DNA of 64,000 nucleotides from a virus (IMGVR_UViG_3300040781_000091:1-64000), one strand, 5' to 3'; positions 1 through 10,967 are shown, counted from the first letter of the stretch. The notes: generated by a model from the letters alone, not told the origin. Made by a program: numbers and translations.

Positions 1-1178
1 CCACCGCCCATTCCAAATGCAATATTGCTGATGCTCCACTTGCTCCGAAGCATAAGAGAAACAATTGCTTTTACATCTTCGATGTCGATGCCATCGCCCT
101 GGATAACTCGCACATTATTCAGAACCTTATAACCCGATTTGTTTACAGTATAACCAAACACCTTGCCGAGCTCGCGTACCACTTGCACAGGAGTCTGCAC
201 AGGATCACCACTGTCCGGACGAAATACCCAGGTGGCTCCGCTTGCATCTAATCGATCTTTAAACTTCGGTGCAATTTTACGCACCCAGTTTACCCAGTCG
301 TAGCTATCAATGACAGTCGCAAAGATTGCGCCAGGTTTTGCGTAAGCATCGAACATCTGCGTAATCAGTTGTTCTTCGCCTTCGCGGCCATGCATGGTAG
401 TTGTGCTATGTTCGCTTGCAGGGATACTGAAAGAACTCATCTCACAATTGTAACCAATATTCGCTGCAAGAACAGCAAGAACAGTGTCACTTCCGAGAAA
501 AGAAACTAAGTGGCCGGCGCCAGCGAAAGCGGCTCCTTCGCTCGAAGAAATACCACGGCTACCAAAGTCGTGTAGCTTGAAAGGAATTTCTGCATAGGCA
601 TCGTCTGAGGATCGTTTCAGACCGTCGAGGATTACTTCGCGGATGGCATAGCTCTCTGTAGCAACAGTCGTCGGCGACCATACGCGGACTAATTTAGTTT
701 CGAAGTAGCTAACCAACGAGAACAGACGCTCGTCATCTACTGTGCTTTCCACGGTAATCAACACATTCTTAACGGGAATGAGCAAGCCTTCCTCGGCTGC
801 TCGTATACGAATAGGAAACCACCCGTCGTACTCGTCGACTACTGCGCGAAGTGCAACTTCGAGGTCATCGGTGTGATTACCCATAAAATGTGCTGCTTCG
901 AATGCAACAATGTTGTTCACTTGTTCGTGTGTTAATTGCTGGAGAAAAAATTCTTTGATCAAGAGTTGAAGACCAAAGAACAAAATAGTGTCGTGTTTGC
1001 CGCCACGACTCTCGATGTAAGATACCATTCTCTTGGCACCTTTCGGGTACTGGGCGTGGTGAGTCATTTTATAGGAATCGGTATCGGCGACAGTTCCATA
1101 CTGCTCACGGATAGTTGCCATAATTCCCATTGGATTGAATTTCATCTTCGGTACCGTTTTTACTTTTTGTGCTTTCAT
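1..1178 (-). CDS. nadV: Nicotinamide phosphoribosyltransferase (NadV/Nampt), C-terminus runs off the window
   Basis: Not in the ORF track. Manual translation from ATG 1178 gives MKAQKVK...TDSYKMTHHAQYP, YIESRGG, FFGLQ, HDFGSRG, SIPASEHS, IRPDSGDP, IQGDGI, NIAFGMGG. SD GAGGAG upstream. Confidence 0.93.
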   Translation of the reverse strand, partial: MKAQKVKTVPKMKFNPMGIMATIREQYGTVADTDSYKMTHHAQYPKGAKRMVSYIESRGGKHDTILFFGLQLLIKEFFLQQLTHEQVNNIVAFEAAHFMGNHTDDLEVALRAVVDEYDGWFPIRIRAAEEGLLIPVKNVLITVESTVDDERLFSLVSYFETKLVRVWSPTTVATESYAIREVILDGLKRSSDDAYAEIPFKLHDFGSRGISSSEGAAFAGAGHLVSFLGSDTVLAVLAANIGYNCEMSSFSIPASEHSTTTMHGREGEEQLITQMFDAYAKPGAIFATVIDSYDWVNWVRKIAPKFKDRLDASGATWVFRPDSGDPVQTPVQVVRELGKVFGYTVNKSGYKVLNNVRVIQGDGIDIEDVKAIVSLMLRSKWSISNIAFGMGG

Positions 1179-1220
1179 AATTGAGCTCCTCAATTTTAAC
1201 ATGCCTGTGTCTTTCGCAGG
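1179..1220 (-). promoter_or_regulatory. Two-hairpin leader of nadV
   Basis: CCUGCG-AAAGA-CACAGG, 8-nt spacer, AAUUGAG-GAG-CUCAAUU, AUG. Confidence 0.65.
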
Positions 1221-1239
1221 ACTTCTTGTGTTGTTGTTT

Positions 1240-1267
1240 ATTATAACACCATTGTTATAAATGTCAA
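1240..1267 (-). promoter_or_regulatory. sigma70-type promoter for nadV
   Basis: TTGACA-N16-TATAAT with extended TG. Confidence 0.75.
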
Positions 1268-2391
1268 CTATTTCTTGCTGGGCCAAACGTAGTGGTTATA
1301 TCGTCTGTACCGACAGCATCTGCCACTCTATGGGCAATTTTAGAATAGTTGGCGCCGCATAGTGTGTCTTGGTCGCAGTGAGTTAACACTGCTTTCTTTT
1401 TGTAATCAAACCATGTAAAATACGCCTCGTCGACCATTACATCTCGCTTCATACGCTCGTAATCGAGTGGAGCATATCTTAACGTTTCTTGGAATTCATT
1501 CGGAACGTTTGTATCGTCCTTGAATCCGGGATTAGGCACCTCACCAGGCAACGGCCCGGCGCCGTGTCGAGTTAGGTAGGTTCGAGTAACATAATGAACA
1601 TTAATGTCGGCCTCTGTGCCCTCTAGAAGCATAGCTGGATTTTCTAAGCCAGTACTCGATCGTGTTACAAACGGAAAGTCCTCGCTACGTTGCCCGATAC
1701 GCAAGCCTTGCGCTCCTTCCATTACTATGTTAGTGAATGCAGACATAGCAACCGTGTCTTCCTTCACACCCACATTCATAATAAAGTCAGTAGCATCGCG
1801 TTGAAATATTTCCTGAGCATCTGCAAGAACGGTCAGATTAGGATCTATGCTTAATTCTTCTAACCTCTCCGGCAAATAATTGTTTTCGATCTCTTTGAGC
1901 TTCCAGATCATCTCTTCGGTTTCTTGTAAATCTGCTACAGTAAGAGAATAGCCTCTCTCATGTCGTTCGATTGTTTCGCCTATACCTAAACCACAGCTAC
2001 CGTGTCGTTCTTTTCCTCGGGCACGTTCTATGGCCTGATTAATGAACACATCGTACGGTGTAGTAACAGGACAGTTAGGATCGACGTAGACCCTGGGGAG
2101 ACCGGCTGACAATTTTCCGTACAGATCGAGTGCCTCTCTCCAGAACATAATCGGATTTACTATAAAGAAGCGACTCAGAATAGTTGGAAAACTATCGATG
2201 GTGCCGGCACCGAAGTGATGAAACACATGCCGTCTGCCGTCTGGGAGAACAACAGTGTGTCCTGCTTGGGCGCCACCGTTAAATCTCACAACAGCAGTTC
2301 CTTTGCCTCGTTCGTGTGCTAACCTCTCGGTAGTTGCACCCTTACCTTCGTCGCCGTAGTTAAGTCCGATTACGATATCTACGTTCTGCAT
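1264..2391 (-). CDS. Divergent adenylosuccinate synthetase (PurA)-family ligase
   Basis: GDEGKG, GGAQAGHT, EGAQG, FPFVTRS, TRHGAGP, THCD and C-terminal GP. The Asp-binding loop (GxTTGRxRR) is replaced. Confidence 0.85.
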   Translation of the reverse strand: MQNVDIVIGLNYGDEGKGATTERLAHERGKGTAVVRFNGGAQAGHTVVLPDGRRHVFHHFGAGTIDSFPTILSRFFIVNPIMFWREALDLYGKLSAGLPRVYVDPNCPVTTPYDVFINQAIERARGKERHGSCGLGIGETIERHERGYSLTVADLQETEEMIWKLKEIENNYLPERLEELSIDPNLTVLADAQEIFQRDATDFIMNVGVKEDTVAMSAFTNIVMEGAQGLRIGQRSEDFPFVTRSSTGLENPAMLLEGTEADINVHYVTRTYLTRHGAGPLPGEVPNPGFKDDTNVPNEFQETLRYAPLDYERMKRDVMVDEAYFTWFDYKKKAVLTHCDQDTLCGANYSKIAHRVADAVGTDDITTTFGPARNS

Positions 2392-2405
2392 TCCTATTCC
2401 TCTTG

Positions 2406-3290
2406 TTATTGCCCTGCTCCGTACAGTGCGTACTCGACTGCTTTCTTAGCTCCTGCGCCCTGAGCAGCAGATATAGCATCCTCAGGATCCATTCCTTCGT
2501 TGACCTGAATCACAGCAGTAATAACTTCACTAATGTACTTGTGATCGTTTAGAAAGATTGCTTTCTTTCCTAACACCCTAGTCCAGTTCTTGCGAACCAT
2601 TGCACCGGAGTGCTGAAAGTAGTGTCCTTCTTCAACTACTACGTGAAACACATTGTAGCGTTCTTGCGCTTCTTTCAGATACTCGTCTGCCGTCATATCT
2701 GTCTGGCTGTTGATTCCCATGCTTTCTTTAATCAACTCACGGCTCGCAGTGCGCGGAGGAAGTTCATCACCGATAGTAAACAAGTATCCTTTCTTCCCTC
2801 GCTTGTCAAAGCAATCAATCTTTGTCTTACGGGCAGCGAAAGCCCAAGGTAGGTCATAGCTTTCATAGCTGTTACCACCCCCGCCACCTTCCAGCCACAG
2901 TTCGGTCAACTGATCAGCAATACGTATGTCTGCTTCAAACTGTGTTACCTGTAGTGGCGCACGGTCACACTGAATGTCTCCGATTGCCATCATCATTAAA
3001 TGTGGATCAGTGACTGGCTTAGTGTCTATAATAGACTCAACTAGTGTGCCCAGGCCGTTCTTTGCAATGTGTTCTGCAATAAAGCCCATCGATCCCGTTA
3101 CGTCGAGACCCACAATAATAGCGGTAGACTCTGGATTCTCGTCCGAGTCTACCGACTCTCGAACTGTGATATAACGCGGATCAAACTCTTTGTTAATGCT
3201 CCGCTTTTGGAATACCTGTTCTCGGCTCTTGCCGCTGTAACTAGATGCTCTGGTACTGTATGCTGATCTATCCCATGTTGCATTTCCCAT
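2406..3290 (-). CDS. von Willebrand A (vWA) domain protein
   Basis: MIDAS-like LDVTGSM, GGGGNSYESY, FTIGDE. Confidence 0.85.
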   Translation of the reverse strand: MGNATWDRSAYSTRASSYSGKSREQVFQKRSINKEFDPRYITVRESVDSDENPESTAIIVGLDVTGSMGFIAEHIAKNGLGTLVESIIDTKPVTDPHLMMMAIGDIQCDRAPLQVTQFEADIRIADQLTELWLEGGGGGNSYESYDLPWAFAARKTKIDCFDKRGKKGYLFTIGDELPPRTASRELIKESMGINSQTDMTADEYLKEAQERYNVFHVVVEEGHYFQHSGAMVRKNWTRVLGKKAIFLNDHKYISEVITAVIQVNEGMDPEDAISAAQGAGAKKAVEYALYGAGQ

Positions 3291-3310
3291 TTTACTTCTC
3301 CTTTATTATT

Positions 3311-4024
3311 TTAATTGTTGTCAAAAAAGCCAGACATGTTGCCTTTGCCTTTGCCGTCTTTCATCATGCTCATCATCATCATCATTGGCATCATGTTTTG
3401 CATACCCATGGCGTTCGAGCCGTCACCGTTTGCGCCGAGCTGACTCATAAGCATCATTGGCATGATCTTCTCGAAGTCCATGTCACCGCCCATCATCATC
3501 ATTGGCATTAACATGCCTTGCATATTGCTAAGACCTGCTTTACCATCGGGCAGCATATTCATCAAGCTACGCAACACCATTACGCCACTGTCGAACCCAA
3601 GCATAGAAACCTTGGGTGGAGTCCAGGTATTGCTGACGCCGCCCGGAGTCATCATCTTGAAACGCTTAACCTCGCCTTGCACTACGGTCGCTGGCTCACC
3701 TTCGACAGTCGAAGGCATGGTAGTAGATGCTCCACGCACCACTTCCACTACCCAGCCCTTGAGACTATTGCCCTGGTAGATCAGGTCACCAACTGCAACG
3801 GAATTTAGCGGGGTGTTCTGTGCAAACGCAGGCACTGGCATTCCGAATTGATCCATCAAGTTAATTGCTACTTGTGCATCTTCGCCTTCGCCTTCGATTG
3901 TCACGATGCCGTCGGCAGTCTGAACTCCTACACGGCCAGTGAACATATCCCACACCACGTTGTCAACCTGGCGGAAGAATTGGTTCATCATTTTCTTGCT
4001 AATGTTATTCATATTCATATTCAT
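3311..4024 (-). CDS. Hypothetical protein with Met/Gly-rich low-complexity C-terminus
   Basis: 237 aa ORF, MPMMMM repeats, first gene of the vWA/PurA trio. Confidence 0.8.
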   Translation of the reverse strand: MNMNMNNISKKMMNQFFRQVDNVVWDMFTGRVGVQTADGIVTIEGEGEDAQVAINLMDQFGMPVPAFAQNTPLNSVAVGDLIYQGNSLKGWVVEVVRGASTTMPSTVEGEPATVVQGEVKRFKMMTPGGVSNTWTPPKVSMLGFDSGVMVLRSLMNMLPDGKAGLSNMQGMLMPMMMMGGDMDFEKIMPMMLMSQLGANGDGSNAMGMQNMMPMMMMMSMMKDGKGKGNMSGFFDNN

Positions 4025-4265
4025 TTTCTTTTACTCCTTCTTCGGTTCGTCGTTCTTTGTATTCACCACCGAAAGTTAATACAAAGTTGTGGGCATCATC
4101 TTCGCACTCAAACTCGACGCCCCTTTCTGATCCAATTGCTCGATCTCTCCAGCCACCGGAATCGAATACATGATCACCTCGCAAATTGCTGTCCAGCCAA
4201 TCTTGTACGTCATGGCGGCGAATAGTTTTTACAAAGTGCTTAAACCTAATTGCTAGTGTTTTCAT
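4005..4265 (-). CDS. Hypothetical protein
   Basis: Start reassigned to MKTLAIRF (ATGA overlap with upstream stop, SD GAGGA). Confidence 0.7.
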   Translation of the reverse strand: MKTLAIRFKHFVKTIRRHDVQDWLDSNLRGDHVFDSGGWRDRAIGSERGVEFECEDDAHNFVLTFGGEYKERRTEEGVKENEYEYE

Positions 4266-4447
4266 TTCTGTTTCTCCTCTAGCACTGCTCTTAACGCTGC
4301 GATCTCTGCATTTAGACACGCCATCTCTGCTTGTATCTGTTCTCTGGCATATGCCTTGCCTGCTTCGAAATATGCATCTTTTAGAGCTTCTAGACTATCT
4401 TTTACATTCTTCTCTATTACGATGCGCTCTTCGTCGAGCTTGCTCAT
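4262..4447 (-). CDS. Small coiled-coil hypothetical protein
   Basis: ATGA coupling, SD GGAGG, helical composition. Confidence 0.65.
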   Translation of the reverse strand: MSKLDEERIVIEKNVKDSLEALKDAYFEAGKAYAREQIQAEMACLNAEIAALRAVLEEKQK

Positions 4448-4881
4448 AATTCCTCCATCGCTGTTCCAAACCTTGCGGGCTCGCTGCCTGGCAAAGGTTC
4501 ACGAATTTGGTCAACGTCGTCCTGCCTTCTCAACTCAACTAACTTGTGTACGTTCATGTGAGGGCAAAAGATCATTTCGCCCTGAAACTTAAAGCGTTCC
4601 TCTAGCTCGTGCATCGTTGCAGCCTTTGCAGCATGCCATGCAGTTCGAACTACTTCGCTGTCACACATTGTATCCTGTAGTGGCCAAATACGACAGAACT
4701 GGCGCTCTACTTTTCTCATCCACGGTAGCTTGTCAGCCGACTCGTTATCAAGTGCGTTGAACTGTATCTGCAAGGAATAGTCGCCGTTGCGTTCACGGAT
4801 GACAAATTCAAAGTCTCCACACTCTACTTGCGACAACAATGCGCGAAAGGTGTCTGCATTCTGTAATTTTTTATCGGCCAT
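4444..4881 (-). CDS. Hypothetical protein
   Basis: Start reassigned to MADKKL, SD GGAG. Confidence 0.7.
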   Translation of the reverse strand: MADKKLQNADTFRALLSQVECGDFEFVIRERNGDYSLQIQFNALDNESADKLPWMRKVERQFCRIWPLQDTMCDSEVVRTAWHAAKAATMHELEERFKFQGEMIFCPHMNVHKLVELRRQDDVDQIREPLPGSEPARFGTAMEEL

Positions 4882-5326
4882 TTTCTTTCTCCGGGATATC
4901 AACCCACTCCATGTCCAGCCTGTTTATTACGTCTACTGGTATTGCAATTCTACCAGACTTGTTAATATCCCGGTCTGGTGAATACACAATTTGCAAAGTC
5001 AGATCGTCGGTCTGCTGCACGGGATTTGGTTGCGTCCTGTTCTTTATATTCATCTTCGTAATTTTGAAGATAGTTCCTGCCGGAAAAACAACATCGTATC
5101 TAATGTCGGTATTATGGTTCTGACGATGAATTTGTTTTCCAGTTTTGACATCTGTCCTTCCTGCTACATAATACTGTCCGCGTTCTTTCTCGAGTTCGAC
5201 GAACCCTTTTCGCTCTAAAATCTTTTCTTCTGCTGGACTAGCGCCATACCAGGGCGACAGTGACAAGGTACTGTCAGAAACCAACGCCATTGCTACGCCG
5301 ACTTGCGGAATAAATACCTTATTCAT
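4871..5326 (-). CDS. Hypothetical protein
   Basis: Start reassigned to MNKVFIP, SD GGAG 7 nt upstream. Confidence 0.65.
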   Translation of the reverse strand: MNKVFIPQVGVAMALVSDSTLSLSPWYGASPAEEKILERKGFVELEKERGQYYVAGRTDVKTGKQIHRQNHNTDIRYDVVFPAGTIFKITKMNIKNRTQPNPVQQTDDLTLQIVYSPDRDINKSGRIAIPVDVINRLDMEWVDIPEKENGR

Positions 5327-5849
5327 CGTCATACTCCATTTGTTCGGTTTCGACATCGTTGTAGATAACGTTGCCGTCCTCGTCGTATAGCGTGTCGTTG
5401 TCTACACCCATATTCTGTAACTGTTTGAACAGCTCGTCAACTGTCTGGCCTTCGTCGGCGAGCCCAAAGTCAATTACAGCATTTCCAGGTAAAGAAAAGT
5501 CACCGATCTTCCTTAATTCTCGTAGGATGTGAACATGACATGCACAGTTGTACAAATGACGATCACGATCAGTATCTAACTTTTCAATATCGCCGATGTA
5601 TGGGCCGGACACCATTAGGGCAATAAATGCCAGTGTTGACGGCAATGTAAAAACATCGAGGTGCATAGGATTGTAAACGGAAACCTTGTCAATGTGGTTG
5701 TAAGCAATCGGCCCCCAATAGTCAGTGTCTTCGACAAATTCCATATACGGGAGGACATCGAACTTGCCGGGGTATTGCTCACACAGTTTAACAATCGCTT
5801 TGTCGATTGCATCTTGGTCGATCGGTTTTGTGGGATCTGTTTGTTCCAT
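5319..5849 (-). CDS. Hypothetical acidic protein
   Basis: TAATG coupling to the upstream NadM-Nudix gene. Confidence 0.7.
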   Translation of the reverse strand: MEQTDPTKPIDQDAIDKAIVKLCEQYPGKFDVLPYMEFVEDTDYWGPIAYNHIDKVSVYNPMHLDVFTLPSTLAFIALMVSGPYIGDIEKLDTDRDRHLYNCACHVHILRELRKIGDFSLPGNAVIDFGLADEGQTVDELFKQLQNMGVDNDTLYDEDGNVIYNDVETEQMEYDDE

Positions 5850-6928
5850 TACTTTGCCCTCGCAGTTAACATAGAAATAATGCTGTGATGATCTTCGAAC
5901 AGCTGGTCGCTCATCTCAAGTGCCTCGCTCACCGGAAACCACTTTGCTGCCTCGGCGTCGTCCATCCCTTTTACCTTCGGCAGTTTGCCATCGGGTGGAC
6001 CGGGCAACTCGATAAGAAACGCATTGGTGATAGTTCGCCCTCGCAGGCTACGGTCGGGGTGATCGAAAACCTGCTGATGAGTAATATTTGCCTCGAGCAC
6101 AGGTACCGGCACCTTTACCGCTGTCTCTTCTTTAAGCTCACGGATCATGCCCTGGCGATGCGTTTCTTTCTGATTAAGATACCCGCCGGGCAGAGCCCAT
6201 AGTCCTTTTCCTGGTGCAGACTTGCGCTTAATTAAAAGCACATGGCCGCCCTGAAGAAGAACAGCATCAACCGTACAGAAAGTAACCGGATAGGGTGCAG
6301 CTCTCCATTGCTCTTTGTAACGTTGGATGAAGTTGTACTCTTCGAGTGTATGCTCGAACTCCGGGGAACCGAAGTAGTGCTCAGTCATCCATTGATTTGT
6401 CGGTTCGTGCAGTGCGCCGGCCACAAGTCGATACTGACGATTAAACATCAGGGTGCGTATTTGAGTAGCATCAATTGGGCGCTCGCCCATTTCGACGAAC
6501 TTGTCAGCGTTAACGAAATCGTAGGAAGGAAACCACTTCAGGTAGTAGGTAGTGTGGTCTTTATCGTGACCGACCAAACAGACTTTTGCACCGGTACCGT
6601 GCAGACCCATTTGGTGACAGTTGTCCTGGATGGTCTGTTGCACCTGCTTGATCCACTTGTTATCTTCGTAAAAGTAATCGCGCAGAGGAGCAAACCACAA
6701 CCTTTGATCGGTGTCGTCCTCGAAGTATTGGGGAAGTGCGTTAGTGATCATTTCTTCGCGTTCTTCGTATGTGAAGGGATTGCGAGGATCACGGGCCTGG
6801 AATGCGCTGCCAATTAACACCAAAACATTATCTGCTTGTCTAAATGCTTCGGTAATTAAGGCGTCGTGGCCCAAGTGAAAGGGTTGGAATCGTCCGATGA
6901 CGACGGCAAGTTCATATTTCTTTGGCAT
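5849..6928 (-). CDS. nadM: Bifunctional NMN adenylyltransferase / ADP-ribose pyrophosphatase (NadM-Nudix, NatV-like)
   Basis: GRFQPFHLGH (HxGH), NPFTYEER, Nudix box GGYLNQKETHRQGMIRELKEET. Start reassigned to MPKKY with SD GAGGAG. Confidence 0.93.
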   Translation of the reverse strand: MPKKYELAVVIGRFQPFHLGHDALITEAFRQADNVLVLIGSAFQARDPRNPFTYEEREEMITNALPQYFEDDTDQRLWFAPLRDYFYEDNKWIKQVQQTIQDNCHQMGLHGTGAKVCLVGHDKDHTTYYLKWFPSYDFVNADKFVEMGERPIDATQIRTLMFNRQYRLVAGALHEPTNQWMTEHYFGSPEFEHTLEEYNFIQRYKEQWRAAPYPVTFCTVDAVLLQGGHVLLIKRKSAPGKGLWALPGGYLNQKETHRQGMIRELKEETAVKVPVPVLEANITHQQVFDHPDRSLRGRTITNAFLIELPGPPDGKLPKVKGMDDAEAAKWFPVSEALEMSDQLFEDHHSIISMLTARAK

Positions 6929-6973
6929 TATTGAGCTCCTCAATAAAATTTGGGTGACAAGTCTATCTCGTCA
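6928..6973 (-). promoter_or_regulatory. Two-hairpin leader of nadM-Nudix
   Basis: UGACGAG-AUAGA-CUUGUCA, 8-nt spacer, UUAUUGAG-GAG-CUCAAUAA(UG). Confidence 0.65.
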
Positions 6974-6994
6974 AAGTTATTTATCTATGTGCTT

Positions 6995-7023
6995 ATAATA
7001 ACACCAGATAATTGATTTGTCAA
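6995..7023 (-). promoter_or_regulatory. sigma70-type promoter for the nadM operon
   Basis: TTGACA-N17-TATTAT with extended TG. Confidence 0.75.
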
Positions 7024-7277: not shown

Positions 7278-7494
7278 TTTTCTTTAACCAATACACAATA
7301 GCAACTTCTTCTTCAACAAGTGCTATTTGAGATGTTTGACACAATTTGGTATCGTTTGAGTTAGGTCTATATTCTACCCTACATGCTTTTGGTGTGAATT
7401 TGATAATTTTGCCGACCCGTAGATCCGCGTATCCGGTTTCGTTTGTGACAACCGTGTCGCCTAATTTTAATTCGTTTCCGAGGATGTCTTTCAT
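7264..7494 (-). CDS. Small SH3/KOW-like hypothetical protein (paralog of 7020-7277)
   Basis: DILGNELKLGDTVV...GKIIKFTPKACRVEY; ATGA-coupled start at 7494. Confidence 0.7.
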   Translation of the reverse strand: MKDILGNELKLGDTVVTNETGYADLRVGKIIKFTPKACRVEYRPNSNDTKLCQTSQIALVEEEVAIVYWLKKSGTR

Positions 7495-7856
7495 CCACTT
7501 AGTTCCATGTCGTATAATTCGTTGCATGTGATGCAGCGGTAAGCGGGGGTAAAACGAGGTGCGAATTGGATCATTTCCCATTCGTGTATATGGTCTTTAA
7601 ATTGTTCCAAGACATAACCGTATCCGTAGCAGTTCGGGCATCTACACTTAAAGTGTTTTCCTATGCCGTATTTTCCTAGTTCTAAGTTCCAGCCACCATA
7701 TCCCTTACACTGCTTGCATTCGTGTGTTAAGCGGTCTTTTTTCTCCGGATTTTGGCCAGTTTGCAGCCGGACCATAACTGCTACGTGTGCAGGGCACTCC
7801 TTCTTCTCCATGCCAAGGAAAGCACCGGGATCATCTGGAGTAAGGTATTCGCTCAT
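7491..7856 (-). CDS. Zinc-finger protein with DnaJ-type CxxCxGxG motifs
   Basis: CKQCKGYG, CPNCYGYG, HxH and CxxC. Confidence 0.65.
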   Translation of the reverse strand: MSEYLTPDDPGAFLGMEKKECPAHVAVMVRLQTGQNPEKKDRLTHECKQCKGYGGWNLELGKYGIGKHFKCRCPNCYGYGYVLEQFKDHIHEWEMIQFAPRFTPAYRCITCNELYDMELSG

Positions 7857-9212: not shown

Positions 9213-10448
9213 TTACCCCTTTACACACACAACCTGTTTGAGCGTATGAACAATCTCAACTAGGTCTTCTTGCGCCTTCATTACGGCATCGATATCCTTA
9301 TATGCCTTTGGAGACTCGTCGATTACACCGATGTCCTTACGACACTCGACACCCGCCGTTGACTTCTCGTGGTCGTCTAGTGTAAGAACACGCTTCGCTT
9401 CCGAGCGCGACATAACTCGTCCTGCGCCGTGAGAACACGAGCAGAAAGAATCTGCATTACCGAGGCCACGCACAATAAAGGACTTCGCACCCATAGATCC
9501 AGGAATAATGCCAAGGTCTCCTACGCGAGCCCGAACTGCACCCTTGCGAGTAACATGTACGTTAGCACCAAAGTGGTGCTCGGTCGACACATAATTGTGA
9601 TGACAGTTGATCGCCTCTTGGGTGATTGTAAACGCTGGCAACGTAGAGCGCAATGCTGTCAACACCAGTTCCATCATGACCACACGGTTGTGCATCGCAT
9701 AACCCTGGGCCCACTCGACTGCTTCTACATAGTTCTCGTATTGCTCCGAACCATCTACTAAGTATGACAAATCACGGTCAGGCAAAGAAATAAAGTGTCG
9801 CTCCATTTCCTTCTTAGCAGTTGCAATAAAGTGGCGGCCGATCATATTACCTGGGCCACGAGAACCCGAGTGCAATACAACCCATACGTCGTTGTTCTCG
9901 TCTAAGCACAATTCGATGAAATGGTTACCTCCACCCAACGAACCTATTTGGCGATACAACTTTGCGTCTGGCTCTTTTGCAAGCGTTTCGATCACCGGAG
10001 ATTTCGCGACGATACGCTCCCAGCCTCGACGTAAGTCTCGGTTAGCATTGTCTAGCAATTGTGTTGTGTTACGATGCGCTTTGTGAGACAACCGCTGCTC
10101 GTTATGCTCGTCTTGACCAACAGGGACCATACGCTCGATTTCATCACGCACAAGTGCCAGGGACTCTGGCAAGTCTTCTGCAGTCAACGACAATCTAACA
10201 GCATTCATTCCGCAGCCGATATCAACACCAACTGCTGCTGGTATGATAGCGCCTTTGGTTGCAATTACAGAGCCTACCGTTGCGCCGAGTCCTAAGTGGA
10301 CGTCAGGCATTACTGCAACGTGCTGATGTATAAACGGCATAGATGCAATATTCCGCAACTGATCGAGAGCCTGGGATTCCACAGGGACTCCACGTGTCCA
10401 CATTTTGATTAGTGCGTTGTTTGATTTTACTACATCATAGTTTGCCAT
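9213..10448 (-). CDS. rtcB: RtcB RNA ligase (3'-phosphate/5'-OH RNA repair)
   Basis: MPDVH, VGVDIGCG, GGGNHF, LHSGSRG, HHNY, TRKGA, SCSHGAGR, DESPKAYK. Confidence 0.95.
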   Translation of the reverse strand: MANYDVVKSNNALIKMWTRGVPVESQALDQLRNIASMPFIHQHVAVMPDVHLGLGATVGSVIATKGAIIPAAVGVDIGCGMNAVRLSLTAEDLPESLALVRDEIERMVPVGQDEHNEQRLSHKAHRNTTQLLDNANRDLRRGWERIVAKSPVIETLAKEPDAKLYRQIGSLGGGNHFIELCLDENNDVWVVLHSGSRGPGNMIGRHFIATAKKEMERHFISLPDRDLSYLVDGSEQYENYVEAVEWAQGYAMHNRVVMMELVLTALRSTLPAFTITQEAINCHHNYVSTEHHFGANVHVTRKGAVRARVGDLGIIPGSMGAKSFIVRGLGNADSFCSCSHGAGRVMSRSEAKRVLTLDDHEKSTAGVECRKDIGVIDESPKAYKDIDAVMKAQEDLVEIVHTLKQVVCVKG

Positions 10449-10532: not shown

Positions 10533-10967
10533 TCAGATGTCGCCGTCTTCTCTTACTTCGGAATGGAAAACATTGAATTCTCCCATGGGATAACGGGTCT
10601 CAAGTTTCTTGATATTCTCGATAATAATTGTCACCGGGTCCATACCGAGCGCAATACATGCATTCATCCAATACCAAATAACATCACCTAGCTCACGCTT
10701 CATGTGGTATACGTTGTCGAAGTTATATGGCTTGCCTTGGAAAAATATCTTCTTAACAATTTCGTTAAACTCGCCGCCTTCTGCGCTAAGTCCGTATCCA
10801 GCAGTAAGTAACCTTGCAGGATCTCCACCTAGCTCGTCTACTGCACGAATACGTGCAATAAATGCTTCGGTGTCTTTGCTTTCTTTGGAAGTTACTCCGT
10901 CTACAAATTTCATGTAGTTATTTAGAAACTCTCTTGCCTGTTGTTCCATTTCAGTTTTTTGTTCCAT
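10533..10967 (-). CDS. mazG: MazG-like nucleotide pyrophosphohydrolase (start may be 10949)
   Basis: GLSAEGGEFNEIVKK...RELGDVIWY...NIKKLETRYP. Confidence 0.88.
   Translation of the reverse strand: MEQKTEMEQQAREFLNNYMKFVDGVTSKESKDTEAFIARIRAVDELGGDPARLLTAGYGLSAEGGEFNEIVKKIFFQGKPYNFDNVYHMKRELGDVIWYWMNACIALGMDPVTIIIENIKKLETRYPMGEFNVFHSEVREDGDI

Follow-up and report, generated by a model that had tools for sequence, protein, structure and literature searches.

A vWA and PurA-paralogue gene cassette shared by phages and bacteria and its candidate role in NAD/ADP-ribose turnover

We analysed a viral DNA stretch of 64,000 nucleotides (IMGVR_UViG_3300040781_000091:1-64000, hereafter the window), which belongs to an IMG/VR contig of 74 kb, an estimated ~21% of the genome of a jumbo phage. 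Near its start is a trio of genes for a methionine-rich (Met-rich) protein, a von Willebrand factor A (vWA) protein and a paralogue of the adenylosuccinate synthetase PurA, called PurA-like here. The original prediction was that this paralogue has lost the aspartate-binding loop and joins a different amine to an inosine nucleotide. The trio is the phage, Met-rich variant of a vWA and PurA-paralogue cassette that is widespread and uncharacterised in both bacteria and phages. We give a probability of about 0.55 to the reading that the cassette makes a GTP-dependent ligase, joining a 6-oxopurine nucleotide to a non-aspartate amine with the vWA protein as its partner, in the turnover of nicotinamide adenine dinucleotide (NAD) and ADP-ribose.

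The closest described enzyme is PurA (EC 6.3.4.4; E. coli structures 1ADE and 1CG0-1CG4). According to the PurA structural literature, the 5′-phosphate of inosine monophosphate (IMP) is contacted by Asn38, Thr129, Thr239 and, from the other subunit, Arg143, and L-aspartate by Arg131 and the loop of Thr300/Thr301, Arg303 and Arg305. The PurA-like protein shares the full-length fold and the activating residues. It differs in both sets of contacts, in scoring far below the PurA equivalog cut-offs, in adjoining a vWA gene and in coexisting with the canonical purA in bacteria.

PurZ and PurZ0 (6FM1, 7ODX, 7VF6) come next. They are phage deoxyguanylosuccinate or 2-aminoadenylosuccinate synthetases, likewise phage-borne PurA paralogues with a changed substrate, and give a precedent for repurposing the fold. 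In PurZ, the catalytic Asp of the P-loop is replaced, the aspartate site is kept and the product is resolved by the host PurB. In contrast, the PurA-like protein keeps the P-loop Asp and its aspartate site is gone. The PurZ case also tells how a small change in the PurA fold can underlie a whole new DNA chemistry.

Nucleotide-using proteins with obligate vWA partners are known among the MoxR-type NTPases, such as CbbQ-CbbO, NorQ-NorD, RavA-ViaA and BchI-BchD/CobS-CobT. There the metal-ion-dependent adhesion site (MIDAS) of the vWA protein is thought to grip an acidic residue of the partner. The present pair is alike in joining a nucleotide-using protein to an obligate vWA protein, here with a MIDAS-like pattern, but the former is no AAA+ ring; it has the PurA fold and a complete active site for small molecules.

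NAD depletion is among the commonest bacterial ways to stop phages, and NAD reconstitution by phages (NARP1-3) is an active research area, in which the cassette beside NAD-salvage genes of many phages is of interest. The two NARP2 genes, NadV/Nampt and NadM/Nmnat-Nudix, flank the trio as its genomic frame and also co-occur with the cassette in many phages and a Clostridium operon. However, the definition of NARP2 comprises two genes, the pathway functions in the absence of the trio, and its paper is silent on vWA and PurA-like genes (bioRxiv 10.1101/2024.02.11.579819).

The bacterial copies resemble members of an NrtR regulon in having a divergent regulator of the NrtR type, with Nudix and winged helix-turn-helix (wHTH) parts, and palindromes in the shared promoter region. 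They differ in that the regulator scores below the NCBIfam cut-off, and the phage copy has no such regulator. None of the terms adenylosuccinate, purA, von Willebrand and DnaJ occurs in the text of the NrtR regulon paper (Rodionov et al. 2008, PMC2330246).

The literature searched, including the NARP1/2 preprint, NARP3, the NrtR paper of 2008, Iyer et al. 2022 on viral NAD and ADP-ribose systems and an oral-microbiome kinase survey, holds no paper describing a vWA and PurA-like module. New here are the Met-rich variant in a single clade, the co-occurrence of nadV at the genome level, the purA and purB controls and the residue-level map of the lost aspartate site.

The invariant core of the cassette is the vWA and PurA-like pair and the third gene is exchangeable, because clustering of neighbouring ORFs and the vWA tree show swaps of partners. 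With the vWA alignment as query, we sampled 80 of 295 IMG/VR matches and 80 bacterial loci; at least 588 genomes of bacterial species carry the cassette. The PurA-like gene is downstream of the vWA gene on the same strand in 156 of the 160 loci, and the other four end at a contig edge. The survey thus bears out both the conserved linkage and the suspicion that similar purA-vWA neighbourhoods exist in bacteria.

The window follows the rule. Its vWA gene precedes the PurA-like gene on the same strand, the latter encodes the N..QG.LR-type loop described below, and the vWA protein starts with Met-Gly, has an aromatic residue at position 6 and falls inside the family tree. In phage records, tblastn retrieves the PurA-like gene from 201 Mycobacterium (Bxz1-type), 10 Rhizobium and 6 Vibrio phages (217 in total) and the vWA gene from 200, 10 and 6 records in the same three groups (216 in total), though the phage loci are interrelated and such counts overstate independence. 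The two genes adjoin in the three phage records inspected. On the T4-like IMG/VR contigs L034, L036, L042, L045, L048, L050, L056 and L059, neck and gp15 tail-sheath-stabiliser genes lie between them.

Both Pfam and PHROG class the PurA-like protein with the PurA/PurZ-type synthetases, although PF00709 (137.8 bits) covers only profile positions 1-278 of 416. Its AlphaFold2 (AF2) model, built on 63 relatives, has a mean predicted local distance difference test score (pLDDT) of 92.8. In Foldseek, its best matches are bacterial PurA with template-modelling (TM) scores of 0.75-0.80, followed by PurZ0 and PurZ, and the best 42 matches are all PurA or PurZ at 0.6-0.8. The structure is nearer to the long bacterial PurA than to PurZ. 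The PurA mutant entries K16Q, R143L and R303L are among the matches.

The residues were mapped by phmmer alignment to E. coli and Yersinia PurA and by hhalign profile alignment to Salmonella PurA. The motifs GDEGKG (13-18), AGHT (43-46), EGAQG (225-229) and TRHGAGP (274-280) align with those of E. coli and Yersinia PurA, as predicted, and in the general form TRxGxGP for the last they are invariant across the 63 relatives. The kept catalytic residues are the P-loop, Asp14, His45 and Gln228; in PurA numbering, the residues at issue in these motifs are Asp13 and Lys16 (GDEGKG), His41 (AGHT) and Gln224 (EGAQG). The predicted change of TKLD to THCD (337-340) holds by position in the family alignment and the full-length fold match, but the profile alignment ends before it. 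Asp340, at the position of the guanine-specifying Asp of TKLD, is nearly invariant in the family.

The substrate contacts are changed, again as predicted. In the phmmer alignment to both PurA proteins, HGSC (130-133) stands opposite the canonical IGTT. In the hhalign alignment, DDTNVPNEFQETLRY at 292-306 stands opposite the canonical N-E-x-G-A-T-T-G-R-R-R-R stretch. Arg131 is replaced by Leu135, Thr301 by Gln301, Arg303 by Thr303 and Arg305 by Leu304, and Arg304 is deleted, with the register within the Arg run (303-305) uncertain by one. Every arginine of the PurA site for L-aspartate is thus lost.

The pocket for the IMP 5′-phosphate is altered as well. Asn38 becomes Gln42, Thr128-Thr129 become Ser132-Cys133 and Arg143 becomes Gly147, so that of the four contacts only Thr239 is kept, as Thr243. 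Across the family, the position of Thr129 is taken by Cys, Val or Thr. We considered Cys133 as a catalytic residue and rejected it, since 25 of 132 relatives have Val or Thr there.

The replacements are a family trait. The substitute loop, D292-x-T294-N295-x-x-N298-x-x-Q301-x-x-L-R305, varies little or not at all within the family. Among 135 full-length, vWA-linked relatives, GDEGKG is found in 127, TRHGxG in 130 and the N..QG.LR-type loop in 127, and only three have TTG[RK] anywhere. Some over-long PurA-like open reading frames (ORFs) in GC-rich bacteria were artefacts of ORF calling.

These comparisons support the view that the PurA-like protein is neither PurZ nor an ordinary PurA and that its acceptor pocket has been rebuilt. 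Against the PurZ model NF038379 it scores 50.8 bits, for a cut-off of 300, and its P-loop Asp is not replaced, in line with the earlier exclusion of PurZ. Pfam and PHROG scans of the window proteins see no Z-genome genes near the trio.

If the protein were an ordinary adenylosuccinate synthetase, raising AMP production for the phage, this would agree with the Pfam and PHROG class and with the public records, where it is entered as adenylosuccinate synthetase or '2-aminooxy adenylosuccinate synthetase' and both its neighbours in the trio as hypothetical. However, it scores 115.1 and 110.2 bits with the NCBIfam PurA equivalogs NF002223 and TIGR00184, below their cut-offs of 402 and 395.55, and the aspartate-binding arginines are absent family-wide. 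Moreover, the vWA linkage is obligatory, and all five cassette bacteria checked keep a separate, full-length canonical purA of 561-639 bits over the whole profile. Their PurA-like paralogues score 137-177 bits over profile positions 1 to ~280-314. An ordinary PurA is therefore highly improbable.

A related phage carries an intein of ~435 amino acids in its PurA-like gene (L016:3403-5925, contig IMGVR_UViG_3300035181_001311). Its insertion point is precisely between His and Thr in the AGHT motif, so that AGH closes the N-extein and the intein runs from a Cys to a His-Asn directly before the Thr. Inteins favour sites of this kind in functional proteins, and the position fits the AGHT site mattering for function.

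The vWA protein has an AF2 model with a pLDDT of 86, falling to 52-66 in the N-terminal tail. Foldseek matches it with a probability of 1.0 to integrin I domains, a bacterial vWA (4FX5) and the Ku80 vWA. There is no Pfam match at E 0.01 or better and no match to an NCBIfam or PADLOC model. A MIDAS-like pattern is invariant in the family, as D63-V-T65-G-S67 and T-I-G174-D175-E176, matching the first motif and the later Asp with the middle Thr not placed. Hence the predicted vWA identity is upheld by the fold, with a MIDAS-like pattern beside it, but not by Pfam.

The vWA family is unusually conserved, with a mean column identity of 58%. Its other invariant motifs are R-E-S-x-D-S, P-L-Q-V-T-Q-F-E and G-G-G-G-N-x-E-S-Y. 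The AF2 model is of low confidence over the first ~35 residues, a flexible tail that opens with Met-Gly and carries Trp or Phe as its sixth residue. In 142 of 156 loci this Met-Gly marks the true start of the protein, and stop codons frequently come shortly before it; a mycobacteriophage homologue of only 35% identity starts in the same way. Of all the features of the cassette, this obligatory vWA partner, whose flexible tail has an invariant, free glycine at its N-terminus, most calls for an explanation.

The tail makes a protein or peptide acceptor a serious possibility, albeit an unlikely one. The GTP-activated hypoxanthine nucleotide would then be coupled via C6 to the alpha-amine of vWA Gly2 or to a protein held by the MIDAS. 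The conserved start and the flexibility suit this, as do the Asn, Gln, Thr and Asp residues that replace the three lost arginines; in PurA these arginines hold the carboxylates of aspartate, and the new residues would suit a peptide backbone. The strict one-to-one co-occurrence of the vWA and PurA-like genes points the same way. If true, the product would be an N6-linked, AMP-type nucleotide tag on protein, previously unknown and deployed in bacteria and phages during NAD breakdown.

Such a modification has no known precedent, however, and the conserved tail is equally explicable as a docking peptide. Fused ORF calls give a weak hint in its favour: three join the vWA and PurA-like parts, with the vWA part N-terminal in all three. 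They may be read-through, since their 90% clusters include unfused members. Two further calls put a kinase-like part before the Met-Gly through junk-like linkers. We did not rely on the fusions as Rosetta-stone evidence, as some linkers look out-of-frame.

Another weak hint is that relatives in the vWA subfamily are fused to U-box E3 domains, which are protein-modifying, though these fusions may be artefacts too. The relatives are the metagenomic proteins P0245, P0247 and P0248 (518-549 amino acids), with C-terminal U-box or zf-Nse E3-ligase domains. They are 32-33% identical to the vWA query over ~90-97%, and the one sequence read starts with MG.

Two other proteins, P0246 and P0249 (metagenome and NCBI), continue from the vWA part into a beta-sandwich region that is TerD-like by eye and has no Pfam match. 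In P0249, a PurA-like domain follows this region in the same ORF. In a subset of Bxz1-type (cluster C1) mycobacteriophages, the match to the vWA homologue is limited to its residues 43-172, and some of the records have an HNH endonuclease at that place, which suggests a homing-endonuclease insertion or a gene split.

The third genes were found by de novo clustering of 2647 neighbouring ORFs. Directly upstream of the vWA gene in 77 loci, and usual in bacteria, is a gene for a protein of ~350 amino acids with an N-terminal J domain, which has an invariant HPD and a weak PF00226 match. The rest has a kinase-like fold. It is a predicted pseudokinase, because the HRD Asp is absent and GGWWY is in the place of DFG. 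The Bxz1-type copy matches PF00069 at 2.7e-8.

The Met-rich gene takes this place in 17 of the 80 viral and none of the 80 bacterial loci. In a tree of 136 vWA proteins, all the Met-rich-linked copies, including those of the window, Va1 and Rhizobium phage, fall in one phage-only clade with a Shimodaira-Hasegawa-like approximate likelihood ratio (SH-aLRT) support of 96. The sole exception in the clade is truncated upstream by a contig end. The clade lies nested within bacterial sequences that are linked to the pseudokinase. Another 20 vWA proteins make up a second phage clade, with neither partner.

Met makes up 16.5% of the Met-rich protein of the window and 30% of its last 90 residues. Among the 17 locus copies, its share in the last 90 residues is 14-27%, apart from one copy with 8%. 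The family combines a conserved, beta-rich domain at the N-terminus, in which V-W-D, P-A-F and G-W are invariant, with two segments rich in Met (MPMMLMSQ-type and MMQMMMMM-type) and a C-terminal tip of F-F-D(N), or P-F in some members. It has no Pfam match (none below E 0.03) and no PHROG or PDB-sequence match, even as a profile, and meets only unnamed viral clusters in the ESM Atlas.

Homologues with the same layout and tail are found in Roseobacter phage RDJL3 (L008:4965-6376) and Ralstonia phage RP13 (L009:4950-6046), neither of which has a vWA or PurA-like gene. The next gene in both is HIRAN-like by motif alone. This suggests a separate Met-rich/HIRAN pair tied to DNA transactions. We also considered a likeness to single-stranded DNA-binding proteins, with an OB-like domain, a flexible linker and an aromatic-acidic tip, and found it unsupported beyond the layout and the HIRAN-like neighbours.

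Hence the membership of the Met-rich protein in the system is less certain than that of the vWA or PurA-like protein, because its homologues occur in phages without either. It may be an adaptor that replaces the J-domain protein or a separate small module travelling with the cassette in one clade. Of the predicted trio, then, its linkage stands for one phage clade, where it occupies the place of the pseudokinase, but it is not universal and occurs alone elsewhere.

The partners also bear on whether there is an enzyme pathway at all. By analogy with the MoxR-vWA pairs, the PurA-like protein might be a GTP-driven switch or remodeller for a vWA adaptor, or the cassette a bacterial conflict system borrowed by phages. 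An NTPase with a vWA protein is a recurrent design, the J domain suggests Hsp70 recruitment and protein remodelling, and the kinase fold is degenerate in lacking both the HRD Asp and DFG. However, PurA is not a mechanical ATPase, and all the residues for phosphoryl transfer to purine O6 are invariant, beyond those that bind GTP. As to a conflict system, the bacterial flanks are ordinary and variable, with no recognisable defence islands, and PADLOC is silent. We regard these ideas as improbable.

The NAD and ADP-ribose context comes from phages and bacteria independently, as the original prediction had it for the window. In the window, nadM comes first, then the trio, then nadV. NadV and/or NadM are within 8 kb in 10 of the 17 Met-rich-type viral loci and in several pseudokinase-type phage loci too. 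At 3-5 kb upstream of the cassette, the Rhizobium phages encode a Nudix/NMN-adenylyltransferase and a phosphoribosyltransferase-like protein. All 7 complete genomes of jumbo phages that carry the cassette (343-608 kb) also have a NadV-type gene, at distances from it that often exceed 100 kb; in a published survey, the share among jumbo phages in general is 33% (PMC9503650).

In bacteria, an NrtR-type Nudix-wHTH regulator is found in 31 of the 80 loci, mostly divergent and directly abutting the operon. It matches PF21906 at 1.7e-18 and the NCBIfam 'ADPR responsive transcriptional repressor' at 132 bits, below the cut-off of 400. The shared intergenic region has palindromic operator-like sites, for example TTATTTG-N7-CAAATAA in Competibacteraceae. 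One Clostridium operon contains NrtR, Prs-like, isochorismatase (PncA-type), NadV, microbial PARG, J-pseudokinase, vWA and PurA-like genes in a row.

The regulator weighs also on the once-proposed counter-defence, in which the cassette drains or reverses the inosine nucleotides of deaminase defences, namely inosine triphosphate (ITP) and dITP of RADAR or dITP of Kongming. The chemistry suits a 6-oxopurine-activating enzyme, and many auxiliary and repair genes (NadM, NadV, RtcB, MazG) surround the window copy. However, bacterial chromosomes carry the cassette no less often than phages do. Its bacterial copies are often under the ADP-ribose-sensing repressor, which points to NAD turnover rather than deaminase defences.

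Moreover, PurA-type enzymes bind monophosphates, not the triphosphates that are toxic in RADAR or a signal in Kongming. PADLOC models match none of the Met-rich, vWA and PurA-like proteins, and neither an association with deaminase systems nor, in the literature searched, a paper on one was found. The RADAR and Kongming roles are quite improbable.

The purine controls bear on a simpler salvage. In it, IMP, inosine-diphosphate-ribose or deamino-NAD would be re-aminated with ammonia or a simple amine, bringing back adenine nucleotides without PurB, and the vWA and third proteins would only regulate or localise the enzyme. As predicted for the window, no purB is present, and neither PurB nor Lyase_1 is found in the whole 74-kb contig (~21% of the genome), nor in 5 of 5 complete phage genomes with the cassette. 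The lost aspartate site beside the kept activation machinery and the adjoining genes for ADP-ribose and NAD recycling are in favour, and the loss of Arg143 and the altered 5′-phosphate contacts may leave room for a larger 5′ substituent.

However, such a salvage leaves the obligatory vWA protein, its invariant N-terminal glycine and the J-domain protein unexplained. It has no glutaminase or ammonia-delivering partner present, and the cassette bacteria already have the canonical purA. The conserved polar loop (D292, T294, N295, N298 and Q301) suggests an acceptor larger and more specific than ammonia. Overall, we hold this salvage to be rather unlikely.

Returning to the GTP-dependent ligase with a non-aspartate amine, we propose the following course. 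The PurA-like protein would bind GTP and Mg2+ and phosphorylate O6 of a hypoxanthine-type nucleotide, because the P-loop, Asp14, His45 and Gln228 are intact and the guanine-specifying Asp340 is retained. The activated C6 would then go to an amine other than L-aspartate and without carboxylates, since the equivalents of R131, R303, R304 and R305 are lost and the invariant D-x-T-N-x-x-N-x-x-Q loop is there instead. Judged from the sequence, its Asn, Gln, Thr and Asp suggest a specific, hydrogen-bonded acceptor rather than ammonia. The nucleotide may have a bulkier or different 5′ group than IMP, because N38 is changed to Q and T129 to C and R143 is lost.

The vWA protein would be the obligate partner, either presenting the acceptor or target via its MIDAS or feeding its own N-terminal tail to the enzyme. 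The third gene would provide an exchangeable adaptor: in bacteria and many phages this is the pseudokinase with the J domain, and in the window the Met-rich protein. In bacteria, the cassette, often under the NrtR-type, ADP-ribose-sensing repressor, would work in NAD/ADP-ribose turnover. In the phage, inside a nadM-to-nadV block, it would operate together with the rebuilding of NAD under depletion by the host.

Such a product would add a missing step in the recycling of NAD, ADP-ribose or adenylate, or reveal a new nucleotide-amine, possibly nucleotide-protein, conjugate. Also, hundreds of database annotations as 'adenylosuccinate synthetase' or '2-aminooxy adenylosuccinate synthetase' would need correcting.

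Several points weigh against this ligase. The donor nucleotide and the acceptor are guesses; for the predicted amine, the rebuilt pocket makes a non-aspartate one the most economical reading. The NAD/ADP-ribose link is strong yet not universal, because three complete, smaller phages, Va1, RHph_Y65 and MoMoMixon, have no PF04095 NadV despite the cassette. Most bacterial loci sampled have no NrtR within 8 kb, although ORF calling was poor in GC-rich DNA. The relatedness of the phage loci counts here too. Lastly, the Met-rich family exists without vWA or PurA-like genes, beside HIRAN-like genes, so that the Met-rich protein may be a neighbour rather than a component.

ORF calls and Pfam agree with the predicted coordinates of the trio, its tight linkage and its nadM and nadV flanks (Table 1). 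By the ORF calls, all genes at window positions 1-7000 are on the minus strand, in the transcription order of nadM-Nudix, four or five small ORFs, Met-rich, vWA, PurA-like and nadV. The trio is tightly packed, with intergenic gaps of 20 and 14 bases.

Table 1. Coordinates of the trio and its flanking genes in the window
Feature	Position	Strand	Evidence
PurA-like ligase (candidate; 375 aa)	1264..2391	-	PF00709 137.8 bits, AF2, Foldseek
vWA protein with MIDAS-like pattern (294 aa)	2406..3290	-	AF2 fold, Foldseek, family invariants
Met-rich protein (237 aa)	3311..4024	-	family alignment; position upstream of vWA
NadM-Nudix (NMN adenylyltransferase + Nudix), upstream context	5849..6943	-	PF01467, PF00293
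NadV (nicotinamide phosphoribosyltransferase), downstream context, runs off window start	3..1286	-	PF04095, PF18127
Four or five small ORFs, nadM to Met-rich gene	4005..5849	-	ORF calls; phrog_1540 (function unknown) matches one

Sigma-70-like promoters with an extended -10 are predicted before nadM at 7023-6995 (-), with 11 of 12 consensus matches, and before nadV at 1267-1240 (-), with 12 of 12. The true start codon of nadV probably lies 3′ of the latter. No such promoter is predicted directly upstream of the trio (position 4024). The trio and the small ORFs are probably co-transcribed from the nadM promoter, because promoters precede nadM and nadV and none is directly before the trio.

Megablast of the first 7 kb of the window against phage records gave no match. 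Just upstream of the NAD block are genes for a MazG-like pyrophosphohydrolase at 10533-10967 (-) and an RtcB RNA ligase at 9213-10448 (-), the latter matching PF01139 at 1.9e-130. A small protein at 7491-7856 (-), also upstream of the block, has a weak match to the DnaJ-type CXXCXGXG zinc finger. Skp/OmpH and ClpP come after these RtcB, MazG and zinc-finger genes.

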